Positions 7,600 through 57,660 of a stretch of 64,000 nt of DNA are shown here, piece by piece. The DNA is from an uncultured Chloroflexia bacterium (lineage in GTDB: Bacteria > Chloroflexota > Limnocylindria > Limnocylindrales > CSP1-4): the NCBI GenBank assembly GCA_963731995.1, contig CAVSXV010000004.1, positions 64,973 through 128,972 on the forward strand, written 5' to 3'. The translations under genes were made by a program, and so were the position numbers. A model generated the notes under the pieces. It did not search any database, was not told the DNA's origin, and was given only the letters and a program-made list of their open reading frames with translations. Within the stretch, counting starts at the first letter, position 1. Every line of letters starts with the position of its first letter.

Positions 7600-8003
7600 G
7601 TCTGGGCGTGTGACCGACCCTGCGCGGCGTCCGGTGGATTCCCGCATCGCGGTAGCCCTGATGGCGGATCGCCGGGCCACCGTCGGCCGGTGCAACTGAT
7701 CAAATGGTCCGTGTGGTGGCCTTAGCCACCTGTGAGGCACCGAACCAGGTCGTTCGGCTCGTGTGAGGCCGTCCGATATGCCCCGGCATGCTTGGATCGG
7801 CCTCCGGCGGACCATGAAGCGACGTGGGAACACGCCGGCGACGGCAATGGATCTGGCGAGCGCCACCCAGTGGGCCATCTGACCAGGTACAGAGCGGCCA
7901 CACCTACTCGTCCGCGGCCCGAAACCGGAGCGCTAGCACCCCTCGATTTTGGCGGTCCCAGCCGTCGGTAGGGGGTTGACAAAGCCGAAATCTGGTGCAA
8001 TGT

Positions 8004-8022
8004 ATCGATTTACTGAAACGAT
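8004..8022. promoter_or_regulatory. Imperfect palindrome, candidate LacI-family operator; a TTGACA hexamer lies at 7976-7981
   Basis: 'atcgatttactgaaacgat' is self-complementary at 14 of 19 positions (ATCGaTTtA-c-TgAAaCGAT). It is locally AT-rich and sits ~150 nt upstream of the LacI-family start. I could not find a convincing -10 hexamer. Confidence 0.3.
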
Positions 8023-8168
8023 TGAGTTGGGGACGGCGTGGACCAGGGAGGGTTTCGCCGGACTCGATCGTCAAGGAGGAGACGGGAATTGACCGAGGAT
8101 CGCTCGGTCGCGCCGGGGGAGGTGCAGGCCGCAGGCTCTCGACAGCGCCACGCCGTCGTCCTGCGCGC

Positions 8169-17136: not shown

Positions 17137-18168
17137 CTACCTGAGGCGGCCCTTGAACCTCGCCGAGTTGGCCACGATGCGATACGCCCGCACGGCAGAA
17201 CCGTTGCGCGGCATCGCCAGCCGCCAATCGGGGTGCGCAACGGCGCGGTGGGGTTCGTCGGTGTCGAGGTACAGGATGGCCTTGACCCTGGGGAACCGCT
17301 TGAACACGTTGTTGTAGCCGCGCTTGATCCACGCCGCCTTGTTGCCGCCCTTGTGGTTGGAGCCCACCTCGGCGAGGAAGATCGGCTTCCTGGTGAACTT
17401 CCGCGCCAGGGACACGACCCGGCTGACCTTCGTGGGCAGAGCCGTCCAATCTCGCTTCCCTTCGGAACCCGAGATCCCATAGTTCATGATCGTCGCGCCG
17501 ACGTAGTCCACGACCTTGTCGCCCGGATACGACTTGCTCTTGGGCAGGAAGTTGCTCCACAGGAAGAGCGTGTACTTGCGTGCTCCCTCCTGGCGAAAGA
17601 TCTTGTCGATGTGTCGCCAGGCCTTCTTGTAGTTCCTGACCGTGTTGCCATTGTTACCGATGGACCATGGAAACCAGTGGCCGGTCGCCTCATGCGCGAA
17701 GCGCACCACGACCTTGCGCCCGCCGTTCGCCCTGGCCGCGCTCTTGAGGTCGCGGGCCCACTGTCGGATGTAGGCGTCATGTTTCCCGACCGCGATGCGC
17801 TTGTAGCTCGTGTACTTGGGGCTTGCGGGGTGTGCCGGATCGAGAGGCTGCCACCAGATGACCGGGGTGATGCGCTTCTTGAGCAGGGCCTTGGCGACGT
17901 CCAGTGGAAATGCGCAATTCCCCTGATCGCGATGGAGCCGGCACGGCTGCCTCGGCTGCCCCAGTTGCTCCACAGGCCCCACAGTCCGGGCCGCTGTCCG
18001 CCCATCATGTCGATGTGCTCCTGCAGGACGGCGAGGTCGGAACCTCGCGGGTCGGAGATGCCGATCGTGATCCGGTCGCGTGCCGCGACCGGGACGGCCG
18101 CGACCAGCAGCGCCATGACGATGAGGATGGGGATGAGGAGAGATCTGGACGGACGATGGGCCCTCGAT
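17137..18168 (-). pseudogene. Secreted GH26-like glycoside hydrolase (paralog 1), one frame disruption near 17965; start approximate
   Basis: ORF 17137..17982 contains 'VVVRFAHEATGHWFPWS' and 'IFLAEVGSN', the two catalytic-Glu blocks of GH26. The N-terminus 'LLIPILIVMALLVAAVPVAARDRITIGISDP...LWGLWSNWGS' is in the frame of ORF 17484..18857. It is collinear with the intact paralog at 19873..20895. Confidence 0.6.
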
Positions 18169-18295
18169 TTCAGCGTGTGCGGCGTGAGCCGCGCAGGATG
18201 GTTGGGTGGCCTGTAGTCAGGATAGTGGCAGACCGACGGACTATCGGCATCCCGGACGATTGGCCCGTACGGCCACGGTACCGTCTCGTCTTGAG

Positions 18296-19150
18296 CTAGC
18301 TCCCAAGGTACTCGGCGAGCGCGTCCTGCCACGGACGCAGCCCGACGCCGGCGGCGCCTGCCTTGGTCGTGTCCAGCACGCCCCACAGCGGCGGGTCGGA
18401 AGCGCGCTCGAACTCGGCCATGCGCGGTGGGCTGGAGCGCGTGTCCCGGCCGGCGGACATCGAGCACGGCCTGGGCCCAATCGAGACGTGAGGCGAAGCC
18501 CTCGTTGACCAGGTGGAAGACCCCGCCGCTGGTCGGTTCGGTCAGCCCCAAGATGGCACGTGCAAGGTCGAGCGCGTAGGTGGGACAACCGAACTCGTCG
18601 CTGACCACCGAGAGCGGTACTGCAGCCTGTCCGCGGCCGCGGTGATCTTGTCGGGGAAGTCGCGCCCGGCGGCCCGAAAGCCAGGCCGTCCGCACGATCC
18701 ACAGGCCGCGGCTCCGCCGAAGGCTGCCAGCGCTGCCTGCTCTCCGGCGAGCTTGCTCGCGCGTATGCGGTTGCCGCGGGTTCGTGGCTTCGTCCTCGAG
18801 TACGGCTGGCCGTCGTCGCGATCGCCGTCCGAAGACCTCGTTGGTGGAGACCAGCACCAGGCCGGCTCCACCTCACGGCAGGCCGCGCGATCGCGCCCAC
18901 GGCTTCGCCGTTGCGGCGGAGCGCCACCTCCGGCTCACGCGCAGCCTGGTCGACCGCGGTCATGGCTGCGGTATGGATGACCAATCGCGGCTCGGTCGGC
19001 GCACGAGCGCTGCCCCGGTGGCGGGCTCATCCAGGTCCAGCTCGGGCTGGTCCCAGCCGTCGATGGGTCCGGCGGCGCGGCACGCAGTGCTTGTCCCAGA
19101 CGCCCCTTGTCGCCGGAGATCGAGATCCCGGGTTGCGACAGGTCGATCAT
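18296..19150 (-). pseudogene. rmlD: dTDP-4-dehydrorhamnose reductase, multiply frame-disrupted
   Basis: Fragments in three minus-strand frames: 'MIDLSQPGISISGDKGRLGQAL', 'VIHTAAMTAVDQAAREPEVALRRNGEAV', 'LVSTNEVFDGDRDDGQPY...ASKLAGEQAA', 'GGVFHLVNEGFASRLDWAQAVL' and the end 'ALAEYLGS*'. Confidence 0.75.
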
Positions 19151-19160
19151 CGGTGGCGCC

Positions 19161-19745
19161 TCAGCTCCAGTCCTCGTAGCGGAAGTGCTGGGCTTCAGGG
19201 CGCGCCAGCCATCCCTCGAGTGATTGCGCGGGGCGATCGCGGCGCGAGAGGAGGGGCTCCTCCACCGGCCACTCGATGCCGATCTCGGGATCGTCCCAGG
19301 CGATGCCGGATTCGGCATCCGGGCCGTACTACCGGTGGTGAGGTACTCGACGTCAGCGACGTCCGAGAGGGCACAGAAGCCGCGCGCGAAGCAGGCGGTG
19401 CCCACAACTGCAGGTGGTTCTCGTCGTTGGCCACGATCGACTCGTATCGGCCCAGGGTGGGCGAGCCGGGGCGGATATCGACGGCCACGATGAAGGCTTC
19501 ACCACGGGCCACGCGCATGAGCTTGCCCATCGGCGGCTGCCACTGGAAGTGCAGCCCGCGGGTCACACCCTCGCGCTGCGGCTGTGGTTGAGCTGCACGA
19601 ACGCGCTGGGCAGCCCGAGATGGGCGTGCTCGGCGAACAGATCCGCCCGGAAGACCTCCATGAAGAAGCCGCGCTCGTCCTGGAAGGTCTCATGCTCCAC
19701 AATGAGCACCTCTGGGATGGAGGTGCCACGGACAGTGAGCTTCAT
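19161..19745 (-). pseudogene. rmlC: dTDP-4-dehydrorhamnose 3,5-epimerase, multiply frame-disrupted
   Basis: 'MKLTVRGTSIPEVLIVEHETFQDERGFFMEVFRADLF...FVQLNHSRS' comes first. 'RGLHFQWQPPMGKLMRVARGEAFIVAVDIRPGSPTLG' follows, then 'FARGFCALSDVADVEYLTTG', and the end is 'HFRYEDWS*'. Confidence 0.8.
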
Positions 19746-19770
19746 GTCATCTCCATCTCGGTCGTCAACT

Positions 19771-19802
19771 CACAAGGGTGGACCTTCAGGTCCACCTTTG
19801 TG
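19771..19802 (-). terminator. Strong hairpin between the GH26 paralog 2 stop and the rmlC start (candidate intrinsic terminator or RNA-processing stem)
   Basis: cacaagggtggacc-ttca-ggtccacctttgtg forms a 14-bp stem. It has one G-T pair on the plus strand, which is an A-C mismatch in minus-strand RNA. There is no U tract. It lies 70 nt after the upstream minus-strand stop and 26 nt before the rmlC ATG. Confidence 0.4.
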
Positions 19803-19872
19803 GCCCCCTGGAATCTGAACGCGGGGCCCTGCGAGGACCCCACGAAACGGTAGCGGATGACGGTTGGCCTCG

Positions 19873-20895
19873 CTACTTGGGGATGTGCCCCTTGAAGGCC
19901 CTTCGCTTGGCGATGTTGGCGTAGGCCTGGAGCGCCGAGCCGTTGGACGGCAGGTCCAATCGCCAACTCGGGTGCTTCTGTGCGATGACCGCTTCGGTGT
20001 CGAGGTACAGGATGGCCTGGACTCGAGGCTGGCTCCGGTAGGTCTTCATGTAGCCCTTCCTGATCCATGCAGCCTTGTTGCCGCCCTGGTAGTTTGACGC
20101 GACTTCCGAGAGCATGATCGGCCGCTTGCTGAACTGCTTGGCCAGCTTGACCGACCGGTTGACGAGGCCGGGCATCTCACGCCACCTGTTGCGCTTGCCT
20201 GCCTGCTTGCCGAAGTTGAGGATGGTCACGCCCACGTAGTCCACGTAGCGATCACCCGGGTAGGCGCCCTTGCGCGGAAGGTAGTTGCTCCACACGAACT
20301 TGACATGCCTGATCGCGCCGACGGCCTTGAACTGCTTGTGGATGTGGCGCCAAGCCTTCTTGAAGCTGGCTGCGGAGTTGTTCCAGTTCTGGAGCGACCA
20401 CGGGAACCACCGGCCGGTGGCCTCGTGCGCGAAGCGGACCACGATCGGGCGGTTGTTATGGTCCTGAGAGACCGCCTTCAGGTTCCTGGCCCACTGTCGG
20501 ATGTACTTGTCGTGCTTCCCGGACGCGATGGTCGGATAGCTCGACCAGATCTTGTGGCTGTTGGGAGTGTCGTCCGTCGGCTGCCACCAGACCACGGGCG
20601 TGATACCCATGTCCATGAGCCGGTCAGCCTCAGCTCTGGGGAAGAAGCAGTTGCCCCGGCCTTCGATGCAGTTGTTCACGCCCGTGCCATCGCGGCCGCC
20701 CCAGTTGCTCCAGAGCGACCACATCGCAGGCTTGTAGCCCGGGAGGTACTGCCCGACCTCTGCCATGTGCTGCTCGACGGTCCGCCTGGGATCTGAGGCA
20801 CCGATGGCGATCTTGCTTCGGGCTGCGGTCGGCACGGCGGTGAAGAGGACCGCGAGCGCGACGAGCAGCGAGATGGTGGTGAATGAGCGGCGCAA
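19873..20895 (-). CDS. Secreted GH26-like glycoside hydrolase (paralog 2)
   Basis: Intact 340-aa ORF. It has a TTG start with RBS aggaggga upstream and the signal peptide 'MRRSFTTISLLVALAVLFTAVPTAARS'. The catalytic blocks are 'IVVRFAHEATGRWFPWS' and 'IMLSEVASN'. Confidence 0.7.
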   Translation of the reverse strand: MRRSFTTISLLVALAVLFTAVPTAARSKIAIGASDPRRTVEQHMAEVGQYLPGYKPAMWSLWSNWGGRDGTGVNNCIEGRGNCFFPRAEADRLMDMGITPVVWWQPTDDTPNSHKIWSSYPTIASGKHDKYIRQWARNLKAVSQDHNNRPIVVRFAHEATGRWFPWSLQNWNNSAASFKKAWRHIHKQFKAVGAIRHVKFVWSNYLPRKGAYPGDRYVDYVGVTILNFGKQAGKRNRWREMPGLVNRSVKLAKQFSKRPIMLSEVASNYQGGNKAAWIRKGYMKTYRSQPRVQAILYLDTEAVIAQKHPSWRLDLPSNGSALQAYANIAKRRAFKGHIPK

Positions 20896-21324
20896 GGCTT
20901 GTGCTCCCTCCTGTTGCGATGGTCACGGCGCCACCGTCGCGAGACGCGAAGGCCGCTGGCTACAGCGGGATGCTACTACGACAACTTGTCGTATGTCCAT
21001 ACCCGATGTCTCCGCCGGATGCGGCGTGGACGATGGTCCAACTTCGCTCGACGACGACCGCCGCAACGTACCATGCTCTCGCTCTTTAGGCCCACTTGAA
21101 CTTCGTGCGCCGGGTTTGGCCCCAGCCGACCCGGTTGCACGAGCGCTCGCCACGCAGCGACACCGATGGTAGGCTTCGCCTTCATTGCCCGTGCGGGCGG
21201 GATCGCAGATGCCGTGCGTACTGACGAAGCAGGATGGAGACGAAGGGGTTCGCGTGCGCGACACCGAGCGGGCCTGCGCGGCTCACGCCTTCGGGCTGAG
21301 TCCTGTCGCAGGCAGGATGGCCGC

Positions 21325-22722
21325 ATGATCCGCCGCCACGGCGGGATGTTGCGGGCGCTGCTCATGCTCACCGACGGCGCGCTGGCAGTTGCCATGAGCC
21401 TGGCCCTCTACCAGGGCCTGGCGCACCCCGACACCTCGCTGGGCCCCTTCCTCGACGCCTTCTGGGCGCGGGCCCTGGTCTATGGCCTCGCCTGGGTCGG
21501 GCTCCTCTACATCAACGGCGCATATCGACTGCGTGCCCACTGGACCCTCGCATCCGAAGCTCGCTCCGTGGTCCGGGCCACGTTCTGGCTATCGCTGCTC
21601 GGTATCAGCGTGCTGTGGCTCTCGGCTGCCGATCGCGCTGCCAGCGGCTGGGTCCTGCTTCTCTTCCCGTTGCAGGGTGTGCTGGCCATCATCATCCGGG
21701 CGGCGGTTCGGTCGACGTTCATGTACATGCGCCGCCAGGGCTACAACGTTCGCAACCTGCTCATCGTCGGGACCGGCACCGAGGCCACGGACTTCGGGCA
21801 GCTGGTGCGCGAACATAGCATTCTCGGCGTGCAGGTCGTGGGTTACCTCGGCGACGCGACGCCGGCCGGTGTGCCGCAGAGCCAGTACTGGGGCCCGTTC
21901 TCCGACCTGCCCCGGGTCCTCAATGACCGAGTGGTGGACGAGGTGGCGATCTGTGTCCGTGACGATCAATGGCCGGACGTCGAGCCACTCGCCCAGTTGG
22001 CGCACGAGCAGGGGAAGCTGATCCGTGTGCCGCTTCAGGTACCGAGACTGCTCTCGTCGGATCGCACTCTCGAGGAGCTCGACGGGCAGGCGGTACTGTC
22101 ATACGCCTACGGCCCCGACGAGCTCGTGGGTCCCGCGCTCAAGCGTGCCTTCGACATCGCCGCTTCCGCTACGGCCCTGGTGCTGCTCTCGCCGCTCATC
22201 CTGGGCATCGCGGCCGTGCTTCGGATCCGGCAGGGACCCGGGGTGATCTTCCGTCAGCAGCGGATCGGCCTGCATGGTCGGCCGTTCACCATCCTCAAGT
22301 ATCGTACGATGGTCGCGGACGCCGAGGAGCGCTACTCGGAGGTCGCTGGCCGGAGCCATACGAGCGGCGCCGCCTTCAAGCTGGTGGGTGACCCACGTGT
22401 CACCCCGGTAGGGAAGTGGCTCCGCCGCTATAGTCTCGACGAGTTGCCCCAGTTCGTGAACGTCCTGAAGGGCGAGATGAGTATCGTAGGCCCCAGACCA
22501 GCACCGCCTCGCGAGGTTGAGGAGTACGACATATGGCACCGACGCCGCCTCTCGATGAAGCCGGGCATCACCGGCCTCTGGCAGATCACCTCCAGACTGG
22601 ACGAGGACTTCGATCACCGGGCAGAGCTCGATCTGGCCTACATCGACCGATGGTCGATCTGGCTCGACGCGTCGATCGTGCTCAGGACCATCCCGGCCGT
22701 CCTGCGGAAGCCGGGACATTGA
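21325..22722 (+). CDS. Polyprenyl-phosphate glycosyl-1-phosphate transferase (WbaP/EpsB-type priming sugar transferase)
   Basis: N-terminal TM bundle, then a Rossmann-like segment 'NLLIVGTGTEATDFGQLV'. The C-terminal bacterial sugar-transferase domain is 'FDIAASATALVLLSPLILGIA...RIGLHGRPFTILKYRTM...SLDELPQFVNVLKGEMSIVGPRP...KPGITGLWQI'. The start is chosen at ATG 21325 (RBS agga 8 nt upstream). Confidence 0.85.
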   Translation: MIRRHGGMLRALLMLTDGALAVAMSLALYQGLAHPDTSLGPFLDAFWARALVYGLAWVGLLYINGAYRLRAHWTLASEARSVVRATFWLSLLGISVLWLSAADRAASGWVLLLFPLQGVLAIIIRAAVRSTFMYMRRQGYNVRNLLIVGTGTEATDFGQLVREHSILGVQVVGYLGDATPAGVPQSQYWGPFSDLPRVLNDRVVDEVAICVRDDQWPDVEPLAQLAHEQGKLIRVPLQVPRLLSSDRTLEELDGQAVLSYAYGPDELVGPALKRAFDIAASATALVLLSPLILGIAAVLRIRQGPGVIFRQQRIGLHGRPFTILKYRTMVADAEERYSEVAGRSHTSGAAFKLVGDPRVTPVGKWLRRYSLDELPQFVNVLKGEMSIVGPRPAPPREVEEYDIWHRRRLSMKPGITGLWQITSRLDEDFDHRAELDLAYIDRWSIWLDASIVLRTIPAVLRKPGH

Positions 22723-24197
22723 GGCGCAGCCTTCGGCCACTCATCGCGCTGGGCCTCCTGGTCGCGCTGGTGGTGCCCGTCTCGGTCGGCGCCGTGATCG
22801 ACCCTTCGTCCGGAGACGGAGCTGTCGTCGTCTTCGACAATCCGAAGCCGACCCCAAAGCCGGACTCGGGATCGGCCTCTGGCCCCGACCAGACGCCCAA
22901 GCCCACACCCAAGGCGACGAAGGCACCCAACAAGAAGCCCCAGCGCACGCCGAAGCCCACGCCCAAGCCCACGCCCAAGCCGATCTGGGTCACCTCTCCG
23001 GTGGCTGCGGCATTCGTCCCGTCGACCACCACGCTGGTGATCGGGGTCAACGGTGACCCTGCTATCCGCGCTCCGCTCCAGATCGCCCTCGACAATGACT
23101 TCCTCGAGAAGGCCGGCTTCACCTCGGTGAACCTGGTCGAGACCGACGACCCCATCGCCGACCTGCAGGCGGGCGATCTGCAGTTCGCCGTGGTCGATGC
23201 GATCGAAGCGGCCACCGCGTTCGCTGACGATCCCACGCTCCAGGTCGTCGCCGGCTACCAGAACTATGGCGGCGAAGATGGCGCGTACGGTGGGACGGTG
23301 CTCGTCGCGGCGCCCGGCCTCGTGGCCGACGAGCCTTCGACCGTCGCGGCCCTCACGCGCGGGTACGTCCGTGGACTCAAGAAGATGGCCAAGGCCGCCG
23401 GCAAGGACCTGTCGGCATTGGTCACGCCCTTCGCGCCCTTCAACGGTGGCTTCGGCTCGCGTTCGGACGGGGGTGGCCTCGGCCAGCTCTCGACGTACCT
23501 CAGCGAGGCGGCCTCGATGTCGACGTGGAGGCGCTGGTTTCGGAACACACGCTCAACCTGAGCCAGGCGTGGCTCGACATCTCTCCCAACCCGGTCACCA
23601 ACCTGGCCGGTGTGCCTGCCGTCAAGTCCATCACGGTGGCGCTGCCCGGTGGCGGGCCCAGCCCCATCGTGCTCGCAGACAAGTCCGGCTACTTCAAGTC
23701 CGCCGGGATCGGCAACGTCGAGATCAGTGACATCGAGGAGCCACTGCTGGCCTGCTCCAGGGTGAGCTCGACTTCGCCGTCATCGATCAGCTCGACGCGG
23801 TGGACGGCGCCATGCAGGGCTTGCCCCTGGTGGCGATCGCCGGTCACCGGAACTACGCCGCCGACGGCGAGTACGGCGGCGACCTGATCGCGGTCTCCAG
23901 GACTTCCTCGACCAGAATGGTGCGACCGTGAGGCCTTCCTGACCGCCTACGTGCGGGCCTTGCGCGACATCGAGGACTCCACCGAGTCCCTGTCTATGGT
24001 CCGTTCGATGGCGGGTTCGGGGACCGGGCCGAGGATTCCGGGTTGGCCGAGCTAGCGCGCTCGCGACCGAGGAGCTCGGCTCCGATGCCGACATCGGCGC
24101 CGTCGTCGATCCCACAGCGGTGCAGCGAGCCCAGACGTGGTGGGGCATCCCAGCCAATCCTGCCATCAACCCGGCGCGCCGACACGAGGAGGAGTAG
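22719..24197 (+). pseudogene. Secreted/anchored protein with a Pro-Thr-Lys-rich linker and two tandem periplasmic-binding-fold (SsuA/NMT1-like) repeats, frame-disrupted
   Basis: A candidate TTG start overlaps the WbaP-like stop. The TM segment is 'LIALGLLVALVVPV'. The low-complexity stretch 'KPTPKPDSGSASGPDQTPKPTPKATKAPNKKPQRTPKPTPKPTPKP' is at ~22852-22985. There is an internal duplication: 'DLQAGDLQFAVVDAIEAATAF...VVAGYQNYGGEDGAYGG' versus 'LLQGELDFAVIDQLDAVDGAMQGLPLVAIAGHRNYAADGEYGG'. The gene ends 'NPARRHEEE*' (stop 24195-24197). Confidence 0.45.
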
Positions 24198-24200
24198 CTG

Positions 24201-25085
24201 GTGCGCACTCGAATCCCCAGGCGGTCTCATCGCCATATTCCTGAGTGGCCTGCTGGTCATCGTGGGCGCCCTGCCCGTGATGGGCTACCAGCTCCCGATC
24301 AGGGCCAGGGTGTTCCTGTCAGGGCCCTCGGTAGTCAGGTGCGATCAGTCGGCGAAGATCGTCGCCAGGGTGATCGATATCCGCACGAAGAAGCCCGTCA
24401 GGGGCCAGCGCGTCAAATGGTCCTTCGCGGCCCGGCAGAGCGGCAAGGATCGTCTCAGCCCGCGGGTGACCACCACCAACAGCCAGGGCATCGCCCGCAC
24501 CCGGGTCAGTTCGGACCCAAGGCTGGCCAGCGTGTCATCAAGGCCAATAGCGGCAACGCCACGCCGGTCATCCGCATCCGATGTGCCGGCGGACTGCCCC
24601 TGACCTCGGTGCTGCCCGCCGGACGACTTCGACGAGCAGCCGCTCGCGGCCCTCAGCGAGCACGTCGAACCGCCCCCTGAAGCTCACCGTTCGCGCTGCC
24701 GGTAGCCAACATCCGGATGCCCCGCCTCGGCATCGACCTGCCAGTCCTCGAAGGCGACGGCTACCGCGCCCCTGACGACGCGGTCGCGCACTTCCCTGAT
24801 ACCGCCTGGCCCGGGGACGGCTCGAATACGTTCATCTACGCCCACGCCCGCGAAGGCAGTTCCTCGAGCTGTGGGACGCGCACCGGCGACCTGGTCGAGA
24901 TGGACATGGCCGACGGCATCTCGGCCGACTACCGCGTGACCGAGATCCATCCCGTCGTCGAATGGGATGCGCTCGAGTACGTGGCGTCGACCGACACCGA
25001 GATCCTCACGCTCCAGACATGTCTGGACTATGCGGAGACCTCTCCCCGCTTCGTGGTGATCGCGGAACGAATCCCGCCGACGTGA
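24201..25085 (+). pseudogene. Sortase-family transpeptidase with an N-terminal TM and an Ig-like segment, frame-disrupted
   Basis: 'LIAIFLSGLLVIVGALPVMGY' is the TM segment. 'VRCDQSAKIVARVIDIRTKKPVRGQRVKWSFAA...TTTNSQGIARTRV' is Big-like. The sortase core is 'MPRLGIDLPVLEGDG...FIYAHAREG...EILTLQTCLDY...RFVVIAERI', which carries the TLxTC Cys, a His and an Arg. Confidence 0.65.
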
Positions 25086-25091
25086 TCGCGC

Positions 25092-27112
25092 GTGACGGGC
25101 TACCCCCCGCCACCGCCGTCCCACCGCGACCGGCGACGGATCCAGCGGGGGCCGTCGGCGTCGTGGTCTGGGCTGTCTGCCGACAGCGCTCATCGCGGCC
25201 GTCGTGTGGCCGTGTCCGTCGGGCTCGTCGGCACGATCGGTGCTGCTCGGTACCTGCCGCTGGTCGACGACGTCCGGATGGTCCGCGACAGTGCGCGTGA
25301 CGCTTTCCGATCGCTTCAAGCAGCTCGAGCCTGCGGACCTGGACCGGACCGCGGTCGAAGACCTCCAGGCAGATTGCGGGCCTCGAGCGACACCTTGAGC
25401 CGTTGCGGGCGGCGCTCGACGACCCCTTGGCAGGCGCCGAGGTCGTGCCTCAGGTGGCCACACAGCTCGACGCGGCAGGTTCGCTGATCGCTGCCGCTGA
25501 TGCCTGGTCGAGGCAGCCGACATCGGGCTGGCCTGGCTGGCGAGGTGGTGACCATGCGCGAGGCCAACGCCGCCAGCGAGGACTACGAGCTCATGGCCGG
25601 ACTGGTCGAACTCATCGCCACGTCGGGTGACGAGGTCGATCGCTGGAGCAGCTCGTCTGACGCAGAGGGACACCTCGACGCCATCGATGACGACGCCGCA
25701 GCGCAGATCCGTGAGGCGCGCGACCTCATGGCTGGCCCGCTCGAGACCTACCGACCGCTGCTTGAGCAGTACCGCGAGCTCGACGACCTCGTCCCCGAGC
25801 TCATGGGCTGGGGAGGCGAGAAGCGATACCTGGTGCTGGCTCAGAACCCCGCGGAGCTGCGGCCGGCCGGTGGCTACACCGGAACCGTCGGGCTCATCGA
25901 CGGTGACGGACGGATCGCTGGTCGACAGCAGTTCGTCAACGTCTATGACCTTGACCTCCCGAAGGGCCTGCCCTTCATCAAGCCACCGGAGGAGCTGACC
26001 GAGAACCTGCTCGCACCCGACGAGAAGGGCAACCCGCAGTCCTGGCGACTGGCGGACGCGACATGGTCGGCGGACTTCCCGACCGGCGCGGCGACGGCCG
26101 CTGAGTTCTACGCCATCGAGACGGACGGCGTCGAGGTCGATGGAGTCATCGCCTTGACGACCTACGCCCTCGACCGTCTGCTCGAGGTGGTGGGTCCGGT
26201 GGACGTGCCGGCCTACGACGTCATGGTCGAGCCCGGCGACGTGACGCTGACCCTGCTGGGGGCCACTCGCGGAGCGCCCGGCGACCTCAAGGGCCGCAAG
26301 GACGTGCTCGACGCACTGGCCCGCGAGGTGACGCAGCGGCTGACGTCACTGCCGCCGGACCAGTGGGGCTCGACGGTCGAAGCGCTCGAGGACATCGGCC
26401 GGGAGAAGATGGCGATGATCTGGCTGGCGGACGATGAGGCCCAGCAAGTGGTCGTCGACAGCGGCTGGGCGGGCAGGTGCGCCAGGATCCGGGCGACTAC
26501 CTCTACGTGGTGGAGTCGAACGTCGCGCCGACATCCAAGTACAACCTCGTGGTCGATCGCTCCGACTCGCTCGTGGTCCAGCTCGACGAGGAAGGGAATG
26601 CCCTCAACAGCCTGCGTCTCGATTGGGAGAACCACGCGGACGAAGAAGGCGAGCCGTATCGAGACCCTGCGCGAGTCCTCGGAGAACGAGGATGGCTGGT
26701 ACGGCGCATACACCCGCGTCCTGGTGCCCACGGGCGGCGAGCTCGTCAACCGTGCGCGGCGAGACGAGTTCGGCTCCATCGGTTGGGCCGATCGGGAGAG
26801 GAAGAGGCCGGTCGGCAGAGCTACGGCAACTACGTGCTGATGACCCCGGGCGAGTCCACGCTGAGCTACCTGTGGTCGGTGCCGGAGCGTGGCGGTGGAG
26901 ACAGATGCAGGCTGGGAGTACCGGCTGGTGATCCAGAAGCAGCCCGGCGCGCGTCCATTCCCGACGTCGGTTCGAATCAACCTGCCCGATGGTGCTGTCG
27001 TCGCCGAAGCCACCGAGGGGCGACGGTGGATGGCGACCGCGTCCGCTACGAAGCTGACCTGGACAAGGACATCGAGTTGCGCGTGCTCTACCAGCTCGCG
27101 GCCGCAGACTAG
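25092..27112 (+). pseudogene. DUF4012-domain envelope protein, heavily frame-disrupted
   Basis: The hallmark string 'RYLVLAQNPAELRPAGGYTGTVGLI' is in ORF 25500..26840. The N-terminal TM and coiled regions and the C-terminal 'YLYVVESNVAPTSKYNLVV...YRLVIQKQPGARPFPTSVRINLPDG...VLYQLAAAD*' are spread over all three frames (~8 switches). Confidence 0.65.
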
Positions 27113-27132
27113 GCCTCGGGCCTGGTGGAGGA

Positions 27133-27852
27133 CTAGTCTTCGTCGGCAGCCATGGTGGCCGCTTCGAGCAGTGACTCGATCGTGCCCGCATCGTGCCACC
27201 GACCCTCGTAGTGGCGGGTGAAGAGCCCACCGTCGTCGATGTAGTGGTTGAGCACGTCGGTGATCTCGAACTCTCCTCGGCCCGAAGGGCTGAGGTGCTT
27301 GATCACGCCGAAGGCGTCGGGTCGGAGGAAGTAGACCCCGATCGGGATCGAGTCGCTCTTGGGTGCCTCGGGCTTCTCCTCGAACCCGACGACCTGGCCC
27401 TGCTCATCGAACTCGGCGACGCCGAAGCGCGTCGGGTCATCCACGTGGTACAGCAAGGTGCCCGCACCCCATGGTCCGGCCTCGAACTCGGAGGCGACGT
27501 CAGCGAGCGCGTCACCTCGCAGGATGTTGTCGCCGAGGACCACGCAGAAGGCCTCGTCGCCGACGAACTCACGGACCAGGCCGATGGCATGGGCGATGCC
27601 CAGCGAGTCGCGCTGGTAGCGGTAGCTCAGGTCCAGCCCGAAGTCCTGCCCATCGGAGAGCAGCTCCACGATGTCGCCGATGCTGCGCCCTCCGAGGATG
27701 ACCATGACCTCGTCGATGCCCATCCCGGCCAGCGTCTGCAGCGGGAAGTAGATCATCGGCCGGTCGTGGACCGGCAGCAGGTGCTTGTTGGTGACCAGCG
27801 TCAGCGGATGCAGGCGTGAGCCCGTTCCGCCAGCCAGGACGACCCCTTTCAT
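27133..27852 (-). CDS. rmlA: Glucose-1-phosphate thymidylyltransferase (short-form sugar nucleotidyltransferase)
   Basis: Intact 239-aa ORF with 'MKGVVLAGGTGSRLHPLTLVTNKHLLPV', 'GIAHAIGL', 'VVLGDNIL' and 'EKPEAPKSDSIPIGVYF'. Confidence 0.85.
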   Translation of the reverse strand: MKGVVLAGGTGSRLHPLTLVTNKHLLPVHDRPMIYFPLQTLAGMGIDEVMVILGGRSIGDIVELLSDGQDFGLDLSYRYQRDSLGIAHAIGLVREFVGDEAFCVVLGDNILRGDALADVASEFEAGPWGAGTLLYHVDDPTRFGVAEFDEQGQVVGFEEKPEAPKSDSIPIGVYFLRPDAFGVIKHLSPSGRGEFEITDVLNHYIDDGGLFTRHYEGRWHDAGTIESLLEAATMAADED

Positions 27853-27969
27853 GTGCCGGACCTTCCTCCCTGGTAGATGTGCCTGCGAACCTTACCAAGC
27901 ACAGGCGCCATACTGTCGGCTACAGCCGTATCGCCGTGAGCAAGGACAGGGAGGCCGGACCGCCGTTCG

Positions 27970-28920
27970 ATGAGTGCCACGTCCAGGACGCTGCTGGAGC
28001 CCACCAGGCCGGGGCGTTCCCAGGTCGATGTCACCATCGTCGTGGTCGACTACCGGAACCCTGAGCTGCTTGGCCGATGCCTGGCCCACCTGTTCGCGTC
28101 AGAGGCGACGCCGTCAGACGTGGTGGTCGTCAACGTCGACCCGGTCACGGAGCTCCGACTTCCAGCGTCGCTGACCGATAACGTCGATGGGCCGCGGCTG
28201 CATGTGACCACAACCACCGACAACCCGGGCTACGCGGCCGCGTGTAATCGCGGGGCAGCTGGCGTCGAGACCGAATGGATCCTGTTCCTCAACTCCGACG
28301 TCTTGCTGGAGCGGGAGACGCTGGGACGGGTCTTGGCGGAAGCGGCGGGCGACCCAGCCATCGGCATCGTGACCCCGCGCCTGGACCGACCAGACGGCAG
28401 CCTCGACCACGCCTGTCATCGAGGCATCCCGACCCCGCTCGACTCGATCTGGTACAAGACTGGGATCGACCGGCTGCGGCCAGGATCGAGGCGCTTCGGC
28501 CGCTACCGCATGACGTGGCTCGATCCCCGCGAGGTGCATGACGTCGAGGCCTGCACGGGCGCGTTTCTGCTCATTCGGCGTGAGGCGCTCGAGGCGGTCG
28601 ATGGCTGGGACGAGCGCTACTGGTTCTACGCGGAAGATCTCGACCTGTGCCTCCGTGTGACCCAGGCCGGCTGGCGCGTGCGCTATGTGGGCACCGCCTC
28701 GGCCGTGCACCTGAAGGGTGTCTCGAGCCACCTGCGCCGGCCTGACGACGAACTCGATGAGGAGCAGCGCCAGACTCGACGACGGGTGCAACGCGCGATC
28801 GTGGAGTCACATCAGCGCTTCTATCACGAGCACCTCGAAGCCGACACCGCGCGTCCCCTGCGACCGCTGGTGGAAGCGATGTTCGCCCTGCAGCGTCGGG
28901 TCGCCGAGCGGGTGCGATGA
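27970..28920 (+). CDS. GT2-family glycosyltransferase (rhamnosyltransferase-like)
   Basis: Intact 316-aa ORF with 'VTIVVVDYRNPELLGRCLAHL', 'NPGYAAACNRGAA' and 'ILFLNSDVLLE' (DxD-type). The late block is 'CTGAFLLIRREALEAVDGWDERYWFYAEDLDLCLR'. Confidence 0.8.
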   Translation: MSATSRTLLEPTRPGRSQVDVTIVVVDYRNPELLGRCLAHLFASEATPSDVVVVNVDPVTELRLPASLTDNVDGPRLHVTTTTDNPGYAAACNRGAAGVETEWILFLNSDVLLERETLGRVLAEAAGDPAIGIVTPRLDRPDGSLDHACHRGIPTPLDSIWYKTGIDRLRPGSRRFGRYRMTWLDPREVHDVEACTGAFLLIRREALEAVDGWDERYWFYAEDLDLCLRVTQAGWRVRYVGTASAVHLKGVSSHLRRPDDELDEEQRQTRRRVQRAIVESHQRFYHEHLEADTARPLRPLVEAMFALQRRVAERVR

Positions 28921-31900
28921 GCGACCGAAGAGCGCCGGCGGTGACCATCTCGCTGGTCACCTGGAACGGCTTGCGCTGGCTGCCCGGGTGCCTCGACTCG
29001 GTCGCCGCCCAGACGCTGGACGACTACGAGCTGCTCGTGCTGGACAACGGCTCGGACGACGGCAGCAGCGACTGGCTCGAGGAGCGGGCTGCCACCGACG
29101 AGCGCATCACCTTCGTCCGCTCGGCGACCAACCTGGGTTACGCGCGGGGCCACAACCGCAATATCGAAGCTGCCCGTGGCGAGGCGGTGCTGCTCCTGAA
29201 CCAGGACGTGGAACTTGCGCCCGGCTTCCTGGCCGCGACCGTCTCCGCCCTCGCCGATCACCCCGAGGCCGGCTCCGTGCAGGCCCGGCTGCGCCGGTTG
29301 TCCGCTGCGGGCGAGCGCATCGATGTCATCGACACCACCGGCCTCGGTATGCAGCGCGACCGGCGGGTGGTGAGTCGCGGGCAGCTGACGCAGGACGCCC
29401 CCGGACGGTGGGACACAGCCGGTCCGGTCTGGGGTGTCGACGGCGCGGCCCCGGTCTATCGACGTGCCGCGCTCGAGTCGTCCCGCCTGCCGCGGACCGC
29501 GGGCGGCCAGGAGGTGCTCGACGAGGACTTCTTCAGCTACAAGGAGGACGTCGACCTCGCGTGGCGGCTACGACGTCTGGGCTGGACTGCCTGGTACGAG
29601 CCCACGGCGATCGCCTGGCATGCTCGCGGTGGAGGCGACACCGGAGCGACCGGCTGGCGCGCCGTCGTCCGGGCCAACATGTCCAATCCGCCCCATGTGC
29701 GAGCGCTCTCGTGGCGCAACCACCGCCTGATGCAGCTGAAGAACGAGGAGCCGAGGGCGTTCCTGCGCGACCTGCCCTGGATCGCCCGGCGTGAGCTGCA
29801 GGCGTGGGTCTTCATGCTGGTGGCCGACCCACGCCGCCTGGCGGCGGTCCCCGAGCTCCTGCGGGGAATGCCGGCCGCGAGACGCAAGCGTCGCGCGCTG
29901 GCCGCACGGTCGCTCGGGACGACCCATCCCGGAGCGCGCCCGCGCAGTGCCGCGTCGTCGGCGAGGCTGGCGTCGCGGCTGCGGGTCACCAACTTCGGAC
30001 GGGCGACCGCACACCTGCGCCGGCGGGGTCCCCGCGCCACCGTCGAGCGTGTCGTCGACGAGCTGCGCGAGCAGGTCTGGGTCGCTCGCCACGGTTCTGG
30101 TGCGGTCGACGGCATCCACCAGAACGGGGCAGGCGCGATCTCGGCCAGGCTCGACCGTCCACGCTTCGATGGCTACGAGGGCTCGCCGTTCCTGGGCCTG
30201 CTCGGCTGGGCGTATGCCAGGGCTGGGATCGCCTCCGTGGACGTCTATCTCGATGGCCAGCGGGTGGGTGCGGCGACGATCGGTCGAGCACGTCCGGATG
30301 TCACCTCTGCCTGGAAGCATCTCGACGAGGCCGAGATCGAAGGTTTCAGCGCGGTGATCGGGCTCGACGGGGTCGCGGCAGGCCCCCGACTGGTCTCGGT
30401 CGTGATCCGCGATGGTGCCGGCCACGTACGCATCCTCAGTCGCCGGTTCCGGCGCCTCGATGCGGTGGCCGAGTACGCACGCATCGCCGAGCGTGCTGAG
30501 GCGGGAGGGGCTTCCGGAGCGATCGTTGCTCCGGCTGGAAGGTCGGCCGACGATCGTGTGGTCCACTTGGTCGTGTTCGACCGCGAAGACGGCGACCTGC
30601 AAGCGACGCTGCGGTCCATCGCCCGACAGACTGCCCAGGACGTGGCGTTGCGTCATCGTCGCGACCGAGGCGTCCGCCGAAGCCGTCCAGGCGGTGGGTC
30701 GCGAATCCCTGGGATCCGGGGTCGACCATCGCTGGTCGGTGGTCACGGACCGGTCTCGGGTGCTTCCAGAGACGGTGGAACCACATGAGCTGGTCGGGTT
30801 CCTGCGGGCGGGTGAGACGCTCGCCCCGTCTGCGCTCGCCGAGCTATCGGCCGTCGCCGGCGTGGACGCCGGAACCGTCTATGCCGACCACGACTCGGTG
30901 GACAGCGAGGGCGTTCATCGAGACCCCTGGTTCGTGCCCGACTGGTCCCCGGAACGGCTCCTGTCGCAGGACTACATCGGAGGTGCGTTCCTCGTTCGCG
31001 ATGGAGCGGAGCTTCGCGCCGCGTTGGCGCGACCGGTGGCCGACTTCGGGAGCGACGCCTGGCGCTACGGACTGCTGCTCGAGATGGGTACCTCGGCGAG
31101 TGAGGTGCGTCACGTCCCTCGCGTGCTCTGGTCGCGGCCGAGCACGGACGTGCGGGATGCGGCGGCCGAGGCCCAGGTCGTTCGAGCTGAGTTCGAGCGG
31201 CGAGGGGTGCCAGTGCCCGAGATCGCCACGCGCGAAGGCGACAGCGGCCCGGTCCGCTCGATCCTGCGCGCGACTGCCCGACACGAGGCCCACCGTCTCG
31301 ATCATCGTGCCGACCACCGGCCGCCGGGAGCTGGTGGCCGATCTCCTCGGCCTGCTCGACGAACGGACGGCCTACGAACCCAGGGAGGTCGTGGTCCTCG
31401 ACAACAGCCGCGGCCGGAACCCCGACGGCATCGCGCTGCTCGCGGAAGCGGGCGTGACGCTGGTGGAGTGTGATGAGCCGTTCAACTGGGCTCGTCTCAG
31501 CAATATCGGGGCCGCACGGGCGAGCGGCGAGCTGCTGCTGTTCCTCAACGACGACATGCACGCTGACGACCGCGGCTGGCTCGACGCGCTGGTGCAGCTG
31601 GCACTCGAGCCGGACGTCGGCGCCGTGGGGCCGCTGCTCCTCTATCCGGATGGCACGATCCAGCACGCCGGCATCTTCCTCGTGGGGCACGGGGGCGGAG
31701 CCGCTCACCTCTTGCAGGGACTCGATCCGGCGGATGATCTCTATCTCGACCTCCAGCACCTGACACGCGAGGTGAGCGCGGTGACCGGCGCCTGCCTGCT
31801 GGTGCGTCGCGAGGCGTTCGAAGAGGTCGGCGGCTTCGACGAGCGCTTCCGGGTGAGTGGCAACGACGTGGACCTCTGTCTCCGCCTCAACGCATCCGGC

Positions 31901-32113
31901 CGCCGAGTCCTGTGGACGCCGCAGAGCGTGCTCTTCCACGAAGAGGGACGATCACGACGGGGGGTCGACTACCTCGGCGACGAAGGGCGCTTGTGGGAGC
32001 GTTGGGGCGACCTGCTGGCGTCGGGCGATCGCTACTACAACCCCAACCTCTCCGAGGACCGGGTCGACTGCGACCTTGACTGGTCGCGCTTGTTCCGAAG
32101 CGGCGGGCGCTAG
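28917..32113 (+). pseudogene. Very large (~1065 aa) multidomain glycosyltransferase with three GT2-type modules; two frame disruptions (~30640, ~31290)
   Basis: Module 1: 'VTISLVTWNGLRWLPGCLDSVAAQT...LVLDNGSDDGS...NLGYARGHN...LLLNQDVEL' (ORF 28917..30788). Middle module: 'VHLVVFDREDGDLQATLRSIARQT...VYADHDSVDSEG...YIGGAFLVRDG' (frame of ORF 30412). Module 3: 'VSIIVPTTGRRELVADLL...VVVLDNS...LLFLNDDMH...VTGACLLVRREAFEEVGGFDERF...NDVDLCLRL' (ORF 30785..32113). Confidence 0.7.
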
Positions 32114-33070
32114 CCGCTCCAGCGTCGCCCGACTCCGCGTCTCGCCTTTCGCTTCACCTCTTCGGGCTCCGGCTCTGGCACGCCCTTCACGATCTCGCTC
32201 TCGTAGAAGTCCACCGCATCGTCGGCCGTGCCCGAATACTGGACCCTGCCCCCGTCGAGGACGATGGCGTTGTCGCACAGCTCGCGCACGATATGGAGGC
32301 CATGGCCCACGTAGACCACGGTGCGGCCGTCCTTGAGCCGGTCCTTCATGAACTTGGTGGCCTTGGCCTGGAAGGCTGCGTCGCCGACCGAGAGGACCTC
32401 GTCGATGAGCATGATCTCAGCTGGCAGGAACGCCGCCACGCTGAACGCAAGGCGAGCGTACATGCCGCTCGAGTAGTTGCGGACCGGTTGGTCGAGGTAG
32501 CGACCGACCTCGGCGAAGTCCACGATGTCATCGAAGCGTTCCTGGACCTCCGCCGCGCTCATGCCCAGGATGGCGCCGCTGAGGGCGACGTTGTCACGAC
32601 CGGTCAGCATGGGGTGGAAGCCAGCTCCGACCTGGAGCAGGGGTGCTACGCGGCCGTGGATCAGCGCGTTGCCCTCGGTCGGCGCCGTCACTCGGGCCAG
32701 CAGCTTCAGCAGCGTGGTCTTGCCGTGGTTAATATTTTTTGGAAGTTTGTATTGATTTGGAGCAGAGGCGCGACCCGCCGTAGATCTAGGCGCTGCCCTC
32801 TGTCGGCGCCGTCACCCGAGCCAGCAGCTTGAGCAGCGTGGTCTTGCCGAGCCGTTGCGTCCGACGATGCCGAAGATCTGACCGCGCTCGACCTTCAGGT
32901 CCACGCCGCGAACAGCCCACACGATCCGTTCTTCCTTGGTCTGCGTTCCTGGGCTTGCGCGAAAGCACGCCGCCCATCTTGTCCATGAGGGCGCCATGCG
33001 CTGGTCGCCGTGCCAGGCGGAATGACTTGCCCAGGCCCTCCGCCTCGACCGCGACGTTGTCTGCGCTCAC
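32110..33070 (-). pseudogene. wzt: Polysaccharide ABC exporter ATP-binding protein (Wzt/TagH-type), split by a degraded tandem duplication and frame disruptions
   Basis: GTG 33070 gives 'VSADNVAVEAEGLGKSFRL...VWAVRGVDLKVERGQIFGIVGRNG(S)GKTTLLKLLARVTAPTEGSA*'. After the insert, ORF 32110..32691 reads '...TAPTEGNALIHGRVAPLLQVGAGFHPMLTGRDN...YSSGMYARLAFSVA...EIMLIDEVLSVGD...VYVGHG', which contains the Q-loop, ABC signature, Walker B and H-loop. Confidence 0.85.
32671..32848. repeat. 54-bp near-identical direct repeats (32671-32724 and 32795-32848) flanking a 70-bp segment with an extremely AT-rich core, inside wzt
   Basis: Read directly. The two 54-mers differ at 4 positions. Stretch 32729-32760 (ttaatattttttggaagtttgtattgatttgg) has 7 G and 0 C in 32 nt. 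See the findings for the alignment. Confidence 0.9.
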
Positions 33071-33071
33071 G

Positions 33072-33920
33072 TCACTCGCCCATCCAGTCGGCGAAGAGCG
33101 GCTCCCGTCGACGGAAGAACACGAAGCCCACCACGAGCAGGATGATCGCGACTGACCCCCCGAGGAACCATGCCTCGAGCGGCGGGGCTGGCGTCCGCGT
33201 GAAGGCCCACCTGACCGAATCGATGACAGACCGCGAGCGGATTGAGGTAGTAGAACGTGCGGACGTCCGCCGGGATCAACATCGTGGGGTAGATGATCGG
33301 CGACACCCAGAACCAGGCCTGGGTGATCAGCGGCACCAGGATGTCCATGTCGCGGTACTGCACCGAGGTCGCAGCGAAGAGCATCGAGACACCGACCGAG
33401 GTGGCGTACATGATGAGCACGGCGAACGGGAGCGAGAGCAGCCCGATACCTGGGGCGATCCCGTAGACGACCAGCAGCACCAGCAACGCGACGACCATGA
33501 AGCACGAGGTCGACAAGGCTGGCGAGGTTGATCGATAGCGGGAAGTACAACCGGGGCAGGTAGATCCGCTGCACGAGCGCGCCGTTGGCCAGCACGCTGC
33601 TGCCTCCTTCACCGATGTTCTTGCTGAAGATGCGCCAGACGACCCATGCCGGGAAGAGGAAGACCGCGAAGGGCAGGTCTTGTCGCGAGCCGCGATCGAG
33701 GATGAGCCCCATGAAGACGCTGACGATGAGGACAAGAAAGAGCGGCTGCAGGACGACCCAGGCGATGCCCAGGACCGTCGACGAGTAGCGCACCTTGATG
33801 ACACGTTGGGACAGCACCCAGAGGATGCGGCGGGTCTTCCAGAGCTCGCCGAAGCCCAGGATGGGCCACTTCAGCGGGCTCGATGTGCGTAGGACTGAAC
33901 TCGGTGGTCGAGTCGATCAT
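33072..33920 (-). pseudogene. wzm: Polysaccharide ABC exporter permease (Wzm, ABC-2 type), frame-disrupted
   Basis: 'MIDSTTEF' is followed, after frame shifts, by 'KWPILGFGELWKTRRILWVLSQRVIKVRYSSTVLGIAWVVLQPLFLVLIVSVFMGLIL'. Later pieces are 'FAATSVQYRDMDILVPLITQAWFWVSPIIYP...TFYYLNPLA' and the end 'FADWMGE*'. The stop at 33072-33074 overlaps the wzt GTG. Confidence 0.8.
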
Positions 33921-34045
33921 CCTCACTTTGATGGACGTGCTACGGAAGTTGGTCGCGAAGCGCGAGCGCGCCGAAGGGCTTCGCTGCCTGCGGTGATCCG
34001 AGCGTCTGATCGACATCGAGATAGAGCATAGCGGTCGATGGCTCC

Positions 34046-50322: not shown

Positions 50323-51553
50323 CTATCTGTGTCGGAGCCTCGCCATCAGGTTGCGATACCACGCAGTCCATCGCCAGATGTGACTGGTCATCACGATGTC
50401 CCGCTCGGCAGCGATGGCGTCTCGCTCAGCCATCGCCCGTCGCGCTCGGCAGCCGCGACATCCCGCTCGGCGATCGCCTGGTCCCGCTCGGCCATCACCG
50501 TATCCCGTTCCGCTGCCGTCGAGTCGCAGAGGTCCTGTAAGGAAACGGATAGCCTGTACCGCGTAACCGACTGGTACCCGTGTGCGCTCTACGGGCATGT
50601 CGGAGGCAACTGGCGCTCGGTTCCTCTGCCTCGCCGATGAGCATCTTGATGGATGGTTCGAGGGCTTCGGCAAGGGCGCCGTCTGGCTCCGTCGTCGGCG
50701 GCATGTTCGAGACTCCCTGCTCGCCGTCGGCCGGGATCGAGTGACTGGCCCAGAAGTCATCGAGCCGCCCCGACTGTTCCATTCGACGCAACATCTGGTT
50801 CTGCCAGCCATGCGAGCGCGGCAGGTGGGAATCGATGAGGGCTTGGCCGTGCCGGGATTTCAGCGCGACCTGCCTCCGGCTCGGCAGAGGTAGATGGGCC
50901 GCCCGGAGCCGGCTCGCCGGCTCATCGATCTCGTGCACTCCTTGGGTGTGCTTGAGGTCGTGGGCGCCAGCCTTGATCCAGCTCGCGCGGTGCCCACGCA
51001 TGATGATCTTGGACTCGAACCGGGCATCGAAGTAGTTCATGTTCCCGCGTTCGATCTCATCGGCCAGGATCTCTCCCGGCACCTCGGCGAAGATATTCGG
51101 TCGCGCCCGATACCGGATCTCGTCGTAGCGAGCAAGGTCGGCATCATCGAAGGTGCTCGGAGCGACCCAGTTGTGCACTTCGTATCTCACGGCGTCTACG
51201 TCGGGGGGCACGTCGGCGAGGATGTCGCGGAGGCCTTGTCCGCGCGGTGCGAGCAGGTACTCATCCGCATCGAACACGTACACCCACTCGTGCTCCGCGA
51301 AGCGACCGACGCGCGCCATCAGTGCCGTCGCTGCTTCCTGGCTGTAGTCGGGGTCATCGAGCCGGTAGACCGACAGACGGCCCGGCCATGCGCGCTCCAG
51401 ATGCCCCAGGCCGGTTGCAGTCTCGTCGGTGCTGGCATGGTCCAGCACCAGCACATGGTCTACGTGGTTCGCCAATGCGTGTGTGATGGCTAGCGCAAGA
51501 CGCGGCCACTCATCGCGTGCCATCACATAGCCGACGATGCGAGACGTGGTCAT
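50323..51553 (-). pseudogene. GT-A-type glycosyltransferase (GT2-like) with a C-terminal 'AERD' heptad coiled-coil tail, one frame disruption in the tail
   Basis: ORF 50495..51553 contains 'IVGYVMARDEWPRLALAITHALANHVDHVLVLDHASTDET' and 'EWVYVFDADEYLL' (DxD). The tail in ORF 50323..50811 and the adjacent frame reads 'AAERD TVMAERD QAIAERD VAAAERD ..AMAERD AIAAERD IVMTSHIWRWTAWYRNLMARLRHR*'. Confidence 0.6.
50395..50520 (-). repeat. Six tandem 21-nt (7-aa, xxxAERD) coding repeats
   Basis: Plus-strand copies of the gtcccgctcggc... motif recur every 21 nt. The minus-strand translation gives the AERD heptads. One copy carries the frame lesion. Confidence 0.7.
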
Positions 51554-57521: not shown

Positions 57522-57639
57522 CGATCCTCCTTGTCCGGCCTGGTCTGCCTGCTCGAGACACTACCGATGCTGACCGGGTCGCACACGGCCATCGGCCCTG
57601 CTTTCCGTGTTCTGCCTGGCCGGACGCGACAGGGGCATG

Positions 57640-57660
57640 ATGTGTATTAGGTATACACAT
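57640..57660. promoter_or_regulatory. Perfect inverted repeat ATGTGTAT-N5-ATACACAT in an AT-rich patch just upstream of vapB (candidate antitoxin operator/promoter)
   Basis: Read directly: atgtgtat (57640-57647), taggt, atacacat (57653-57660). It lies 18 nt upstream of ATG 57678. Confidence 0.45.

Follow-up and report, generated by a model that had tools for sequence, protein, structure and literature searches.

The window, by which we mean the whole 64 kb stretch of DNA analysed here, carries a gene cluster that contains rmlA, rmlC and rmlD together with GT2 glycosyltransferases, sulfotransferases and a Bac_transf gene. Encoded on the minus strand are wzm (33072..33922), the gene of an ABC-2 membrane permease, and wzt, which begins with a GTG start codon at 33070 and whose stop codon closes its 3' part (32110..32724). 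At the Walker A box, wzt is split by an additional 124 nt. Once these are deleted, the repaired Wzt is 98% identical in protein searches to P0001, an intact protein of 278 aa that matches the profile PF00005 (ABC_tran), and 87% identical to P0002 and P0003; the gene adjoining wzt resembles the PF01061 (ABC2_membrane) proteins of the relatives L001 and L002. Judged by these profiles, the repaired gene would place an ABC ATPase beside an ABC-2 permease within a glycan gene cluster, which is the arrangement of a Wzm/Wzt ABC transporter.

A repeat search describes the insert as a direct repeat on the plus strand, in which positions 32653-32725 and 32777-32849 are 88% identical over 73 nt at a spacing of 124 nt; in a scan of the whole 64 kb, this repeat with its 124-nt period is the sole short-range one of such kind and size. 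Its 54-nt cores (32671-32724 and 32795-32848) agree at 50 of 54 positions, and on the minus strand both are translated into GKTTLLKLLARVTAPTEG, with all four differences synonymous and at third codon positions. A sequence-only reading of the window had pointed out the cores, their shared translation and the four silent differences, all of which were reproduced, as were the in-frame TAG at 32786-32788 and the statement that the downstream copy, hereafter copy B, possesses neither a start codon nor the first half of Walker A. The longest ORF of copy B (32110-32691) opens only at a GTG inside RVTAP. Tandem repeats of other kinds occur elsewhere in the window: a 19-nt unit (GACCTGTGTTCGGGGTAGC; 2.8 copies, 97% matches) without a clear coding signal is found at 7543-7596, upstream of an ORF at 7995-9212, with a low-GC spot at 7988-8027, and imperfect repeats of 41 nt and 21 nt (77% matches, about 2.3 copies) occupy 50398-50507.

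Three-frame translation and alignment to the relatives L001, L002 and L003 delimit the wzt 5' part (32849..33070, minus strand), which opens at the GTG start and breaks off halfway through Walker A, after GIVGRNGS. Its sequence resembles that of L001 (1-3 differences per 30 nt) and has one inserted nucleotide (+1) near 32942; a 1-nt deletion (GGCTC-GGCAAG, 32848/9) closes it and, relative to all three relatives, falls exactly on the 5' edge of the upstream copy; the joint between this upstream part of wzt (U) and the inserted island reads AACGGCTCGGCAAGACC. The island begins with a clean part, copy A (32795..32848, minus strand), which encodes GKTTLLKLLARVTAPTEG with the four synonymous differences from copy B. 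Its middle part (32760..32794, minus strand) opens with an allele encoding S-A-(R>stop)-I-Y, in which the TAG at 32786-32788 is included, and continues, after a second 1-nt deletion that alignment to the relatives places at about 32777, with mixed substitutions, so that 10 of 37 columns (window 32760-32794 plus one gap column) differ from copy B. The island closes with a degenerate tail (32725..32762, minus strand), homologous in register to wzt ...QVGAGFHPMLTG. Damage thus forms a gradient towards the 3' edge of the island, from 4/54 in the clean part through 10/37, with a 1-nt deletion, to 18/34. Beyond the joint ATATTAACCACGGCAAGACC lies copy B (32601..32724, minus strand), the authentic wzt continuation, which covers the remaining half of Walker A and reaches the Q-loop region, and from copy B to the stop codon the wzt 3' part (32110..32724, minus strand) encodes a protein 100% identical to P0001, with 0 indels against either L001 or L002. 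The +1 insertion at 32942 and the -1 deletion at 32848/9 compensate each other and place the N-terminus and the island's GKTT... in one frame, which explains a misleading 343-aa ORF (32786-33817) that fuses wzm-frame and wzt-frame text. Three indels specific to the window, namely the loss of 2 nt at about 33870 and the gain of 1 nt both at about 33502 and at about 33226, distribute the upstream gene wzm over three frames; they recur in comparison with L001, L002 and L003, whose intact Wzm proteins match frames -1, -2 and -3 in succession in tblastn.

Each of these three relatives has one uninterrupted wzt adjoining an intact wzm, and the alignments of all three to the window break at 32725 and at 32758-63, with overlapping query coordinates. 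Because the breaks recur in every relative, the extra 124 nt are specific to the window. The alignment of related wzt genes, which the sequence-only reading had put forward as a check, thus returned an uninterrupted single copy in 3/3 cases. Scanning GTDB genomes and JGI metagenomes with P0001 yielded only distant relatives of at most 55% aa identity, and a further related contig found via rmlA, L164, ends 0.5 kb short on the wzt side. As far as comparative sequence evidence goes, the organism's real wzt is most likely a single uninterrupted gene, like the one encoding P0001 in L001.

The two copies represent different alleles. Copy A reads AGC-GCC-nGG-ATC-TAC, corresponding to S-A-R-I-Y as in L002/L003 and P0002/P0003, whereas copy B has N-A-L-I-H, the allele of L001/P0001. 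Counted by hand in the alignment, the first 70 nt of copy A differ from L001 by about 19%; copy B, compared over its first 70 nt, is 4.3% from L001, both flanks are 3-5% from it, and wzm and the wzt 5' part stay L001-like up to the repeat edge. Between the copies themselves the divergence is about 12%, with 9 differences in the first 70 nt, and the edge of copy A consists of 17 nt identical to copy B followed by synonymous SNPs. We estimate that four of four differences would be synonymous by chance with a probability of about 0.004, and that four shared states among ten changes would arise with a probability of about 0.01. Since the changes in copy A are either synonymous or L002/L003-like, they reflect real polymorphism rather than noise. 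The allele comparison shows the island to be a piece of another, functional and selectively maintained wzt allele placed between two flanks of one haplotype, and in this respect the earlier suggestion of two diverged functional alleles is upheld.

The same comparison bears on an in-place origin, in which slippage or unequal crossing-over would have duplicated 124 nt in tandem and the product would have decayed neutrally in a pseudogenised exporter locus. The direct head-to-tail arrangement with a period of 124 nt would be expected of such an event, and wzm, wzt and their neighbours do carry frameshifts; however, we regard it as highly improbable. Polarised with L002/L003 as outgroups, the window-specific substitutions amount to 9 in 1037 nt of wzm and the wzt 5' part and to 3 in 612 nt of the wzt 3' part, all three of the latter at third codon positions. 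With about 1% window-specific change in the flanks, an in-place duplicate would be expected to show less than one change in 70 nt, whereas 9 are observed; in other words, copies that arose in place should diverge no more than their flanks, and here about 12% over 73 nt stands against about 1%. Unlike neutral decay, the changes are synonymous or common to other lineages and the substitutions still favour third codon positions; frameshifts also occur outside the exporter locus. Moreover, both edges of the island are anomalous, one with the 1-nt deletion at 32848/9 and the other with the degenerate tail at 32725-32762. Slippage or unequal crossing-over makes only one new joint, and the two odd edges are therefore what would be expected of a spliced-in piece. 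The description of the insert in the sequence-only reading as a tandem duplication with a decaying first copy has to be abandoned, since the excess divergence over the flanks indicates that copy A was not derived from copy B in place.

The 34-nt core of the tail (32726-32759) has a GC content of 23.5% and lies inside the lowest-GC 40-mer of the window. Aligned in register to the genuine wzt continuation, it matches at 16/34 positions, and 15/18 mismatches are A on the sense strand; both this alignment and the AT-richness had been reported from the letters alone and were reproduced. Shuffling the tail in a fixed register gives p = 2 × 10⁻⁵ for the likeness to wzt, choosing the best among 11 registers yields p = 3 × 10⁻⁴, and 16/34 matches are reached at only about 3 × 10⁻⁴ of all window positions. 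As the match exceeds chance, the tail represents the stretch of wzt beyond Walker A in degraded form and is not unrelated filler. Relative to copy B, its sense-strand changes consist of ten G>A, four C>A and one T>A. On the plus strand, 32725-32762 is a run of 38 nt without C (without G on the sense strand), the longest in the window, the next longest being 25 nt; compared with homologous wzt, 12/12 C are lost (10 of them as C>T), 7/12 G are kept, and GGGG is replaced by TTTT. This C-depleted tail resembles the outcome of deamination, and it would lie at the 5' end of a plus-strand molecule. No further strand-biased substitution clusters occur in the approximately 12 kb that can be aligned to relatives. 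Conceivable origins of the tail are basecalling noise at the start of a read, damaged environmental DNA whose deaminated 5' overhang was filled in, or a true deamination footprint at a recombination joint.

Two other compositional extremes were observed in the window. The second-lowest-GC spot (57637-57676) is intergenic, between divergent ORFs, and contains the palindrome TGTGTATTAGGTATACACA, possibly an operator site. A run of 103 nt without T (22881-22983), which contains AAGCCC and ACGCCCAAGCCCAC repeats, encodes a Thr/Pro/Lys-rich linker in a gene that adjoins a sortase and a DUF4012 gene.

The sense-strand adenines of the tail had raised the possibility of a directed, adenine-biased mutagenic process, which would correspond to DGR-type mutagenesis in which the A-rich copy would serve as template repeat and its partner as variable repeat. 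A repeat pair of about 124 nt, with A in one copy at 15/18 mismatches of the final 34 nt, would be in keeping with such a system. However, over the first 91 alignment columns copy A has an adenine at 2/14 mismatches and none at the other 12, which violates the adenine-only rule, and the supposed variable copy is the conserved core from Walker A to the Q-loop, protein-identical to its homologues, rather than a ligand-binding tip. What looks like an adenine bias is more aptly expressed as the loss of all C from one strand. A six-frame search of the 64 kb for the reverse-transcriptase motif pair LGxxxSQ and YxDD, a motif test weakened by the frameshifts, found no co-located pair. We have accordingly rejected adenine mutagenesis, whose probability we consider negligible.

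An ONT ligation adapter (GTATTGCT, a T run and GGTTAA) was also suspected in the AT-rich stretch and set aside, as local alignment against shuffles gave p values of about 0.1-0.3; the ONT adapter sequences used for this alignment were confirmed in a paper. In the corresponding local alignments of ONT, PacBio and Illumina adapters to the tail, p was at least 0.08, with nothing above chance, and searches of plasmid and phage collections with 32722-32800 returned chance matches only (E ≥ 0.6). The search for adaptor or vector sequence in the AT-rich segment, which the sequence-only reading had called for, thus produced nothing significant. An adapter or vector at the joint would be a supportive but not an obligatory mark of an artefact.

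Broken reading frames are spread along the contig. Pfam searches on three-frame translations find the domains of rmlC and rmlD (17.9-19.9 kb) split between frames; they also show, away from the polysaccharide locus, a DHDPS-family gene (about 49.5 kb) that is broken exactly between positions 64 and 65 of the profile. The large glycosyltransferase (GT2 protein, 28917-32113) is frameshifted at about 30.64 and 31.27 kb, and the sulfotransferases are split as well, both in two genes (34.1-35.6 kb) and in a sulfotransferase-like region at about 16.7 kb. For wzm, the wzt 5' part, the sulfotransferases and the glycosyltransferase, the splits were recognised by matching intact proteins of relatives to successive frames of the window; a GC3 frame plot and a codon-usage Viterbi model proved too noisy to count frameshifts, though the Viterbi model recovered the known ones. 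Frameshifts of the kind expected from consensus error thus occur independently of the locus, in rmlC, rmlD, the DHDPS-family gene, the glycosyltransferase and the sulfotransferases. In wzm and the wzt 5' part, 4-5 window-specific indel events stand against the 9 polarised substitutions (6 at codon position 3), an indel:substitution ratio of about 0.5. To our knowledge, such a ratio is far above that of real bacterial pseudogenes and typical of long-read consensus error. Compared with L164, whose genes are intact, the window likewise shows many indel events, with more deletions than insertions, and substitutions mostly at codon position 3. The occurrence of 1-nt indels throughout, combined with the third-position bias of the substitutions, argues for consensus error and not for pseudogenes. 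L001 has frameshifts of its own, at other places, and related contigs bear the names contig_70521 and contig_42596 in the ENA analyses ERZ25039600 and ERZ25039549, respectively. The window itself is part of a contig of 727,275 bp. A long-read metagenome pipeline described in PMC12313526 consists of metaFlye --nano-hq and one Medaka round. We infer that the window stems from a low-accuracy long-read metagenome assembly of that kind, with a link to Nanopore and Flye that is drawn only from contig naming and error profile.

The comparison with L164 (ENA ERZ25039549 contig_42596) also revealed a patchwork of identities. It covers window positions 17178-28384, where identity is 99.6% at rmlA and the first GT2 gene (27.9-28.4 kb) and drops to 73-90% between 24.4 and 18 kb. 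This mosaic suggests either frequent recombination in the cell-wall polysaccharide locus or a strain-mixed consensus.

We propose, with a probability of roughly 70%, that the 124-nt insert is a local assembly artefact, namely the end of a read from another strain that was left unmerged at a strain branch point of a noisy long-read contig. This is supported by the single uninterrupted wzt in 3/3 relatives and by the recovery of 98% identity to P0001 on deletion of the 124 nt. The island is foreign to its flanks (about 19% against 3-5% from L001), and both of its edges are anomalous, as for a spliced-in piece. The 1-nt indels in conserved genes across the contig with their high ratio to substitutions, the contig_N naming of relatives in ENA and the frameshifts of L001 itself point in the same direction. 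Three observations run counter to it: none of the ONT, PacBio and Illumina adapters aligns to the tail better than expected by chance (p about 0.1 at best), the base-specific pattern of the tail on the plus strand (12 C lost, 7/12 G kept, GGGG to TTTT) corresponds to no known generic read-end error profile, and a donor read that contributes only 124 nt would be unusual for an overlap-based assembler. An unmerged overlap with a low-quality tail had been one of the options listed in the sequence-only reading; given the contig-wide frameshifts it fits best, although the adapter remnant that could have accompanied it is missing.

In metaFlye-type consensus sequences, an unmerged overlap, a read 'glitch' or the tip of a strain bubble can remain. 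For the assembly artefact in wzt, we infer the following multistep mis-join of a read end or graph tip, in which (i) the assembler would leave an extra 124 nt in the consensus, derived from a read end or short graph tip of a co-occurring strain with a different wzt allele; (ii) this foreign piece would enter at the Walker A codons common to both strains; (iii) it would contribute about 70 nt of good sequence of the other allele, followed by about 55 nt that degrade towards the end of the molecule; (iv) the contig would restart at the same Walker A position on the sequence of the main strain. Polishing with spanning reads of the main strain could not remove an insertion of 124 nt, and the alignment of such reads across the long gap may account for the 1-nt deletion at the edge.

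The anatomy of the island, foreign sequence joined homologously at one end and illegitimately at the other, would also fit a genuine recombination scar, and a read mis-join yields the same anatomy. In such a scar, a short wzt fragment of a diverged relative, with a heavily cytosine-deaminated single-stranded end, would have entered the cell by transformation or another kind of transfer and inserted into its homologous counterpart; one end would have been anchored by the identical Walker A and the other joined illegitimately, through homology-facilitated illegitimate recombination or end joining, resulting in a 124-nt insertion that inactivates the exporter ATPase. In favour of a scar, the island stems from a true foreign allele and is homologous at one edge (17 nt identical, then synonymous SNPs), its C>T changes cluster on one strand immediately next to the non-homologous joint, as for deamination of ssDNA beside a break, and the populations are mosaic, with identity to L164 ranging from 99.6% to 73% within a few kb. 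However, we consider a genuine scar unlikely. The indel noise of the contig makes a technical origin much likelier a priori, and the wzt 3' part is undecayed (100% identity to P0001, 0 indels), which would require an extremely recent event. Conversion of every C over 38 nt, together with GGGG to TTTT, exceeds known biological damage, and the alignable 12 kb hold no second example. For the recombination scar raised in the sequence-only reading, the anatomy and the mosaicism speak in its favour, and the noise of the contig and the undecayed wzt 3' part weigh against it. The accompanying claim that the junction marks the boundary between a conserved and a variable half of the locus is not supported by the alignments: similarity to L001 persists through wzm, at 93-96% over a further 1.1 kb, and collapses only near 33.9 kb. 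More doubtful still is a specific form of this scenario, in which a short, damaged, heavily cytosine-deaminated wzt fragment of a relative would have been taken up and spliced into the homologous gene of a soil actinobacterium-like organism, anchored at Walker A, with the kataegis-like C>T cluster marking its single-stranded end; this would make it a natural case in which degraded environmental DNA was integrated.

The 124-nt insert is a genuine feature of the deposited sequence and most probably not a feature of the organism itself; the split wzt and the other split genes on the contig are most likely consensus errors. The window should not be read as evidence of a broken polysaccharide exporter or of a new mutagenic process, and annotation or pseudogene counts derived from the contig need checking at the level of reads. 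If the insert were real, it would constitute a rare in-situ record of the illegitimate integration of a short, damaged foreign fragment together with a strand-specific deamination footprint.

The features of the island can be compared with several known systems. With the template/variable pair of a DGR it shares a repeat of about 120 nt in which one segment is adenine-biased; it differs in that no reverse transcriptase was found in the window, mismatches extend beyond adenines, the target would be the core of a conserved ATPase and both copies lie side by side in one gene. Homology-facilitated and short-patch illegitimate recombination during natural transformation, with the uptake of short damaged DNA included, have reportedly been described (de Vries and Wackernagel 2002; Harms et al. 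2016; Overballe-Petersen et al. 2013). As in homology-facilitated or short-patch illegitimate recombination, the island is a foreign homologous fragment with one identical and one non-homologous edge and leads to a local duplication, whereas its anchor is short, it is known from the assembly alone, and no independent sign of transformability accompanies it.

Strand-coordinated C>T clusters beside rearrangement joints, known as kataegis, result from cytosine deamination of resected ssDNA, and ancient or relic DNA shows C>T damage at its 5' ends. The changes in the tail are similarly one-stranded and overwhelmingly C>T; they directly adjoin a breakpoint and become sparser further away. In contrast to both kinds of damage, conversion in the tail is 100% over 38 nt and includes GGGG to TTTT, and no deaminase was identified. 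The orientation of the tail, at the 5' end of a plus-strand molecule, is easier to reconcile with a 5' overhang that was filled in than with a 3' tail left by resection.

Read artefacts such as mid-read adapters and chimeras have been described (bioRxiv 10.1101/2022.07.07.499093). Compared with long-read assembly errors, that is, an unmerged overlap, a glitch or the tip of a strain bubble, the island is atypical in that it has no adapter remnant and its bad end is base-specific (loss of C) rather than random. It nevertheless shares with them the short direct duplication at a single spot, the one poor copy that worsens towards the end of a molecule, the juxtaposition of two haplotypes and the abundance of 1-nt indels.
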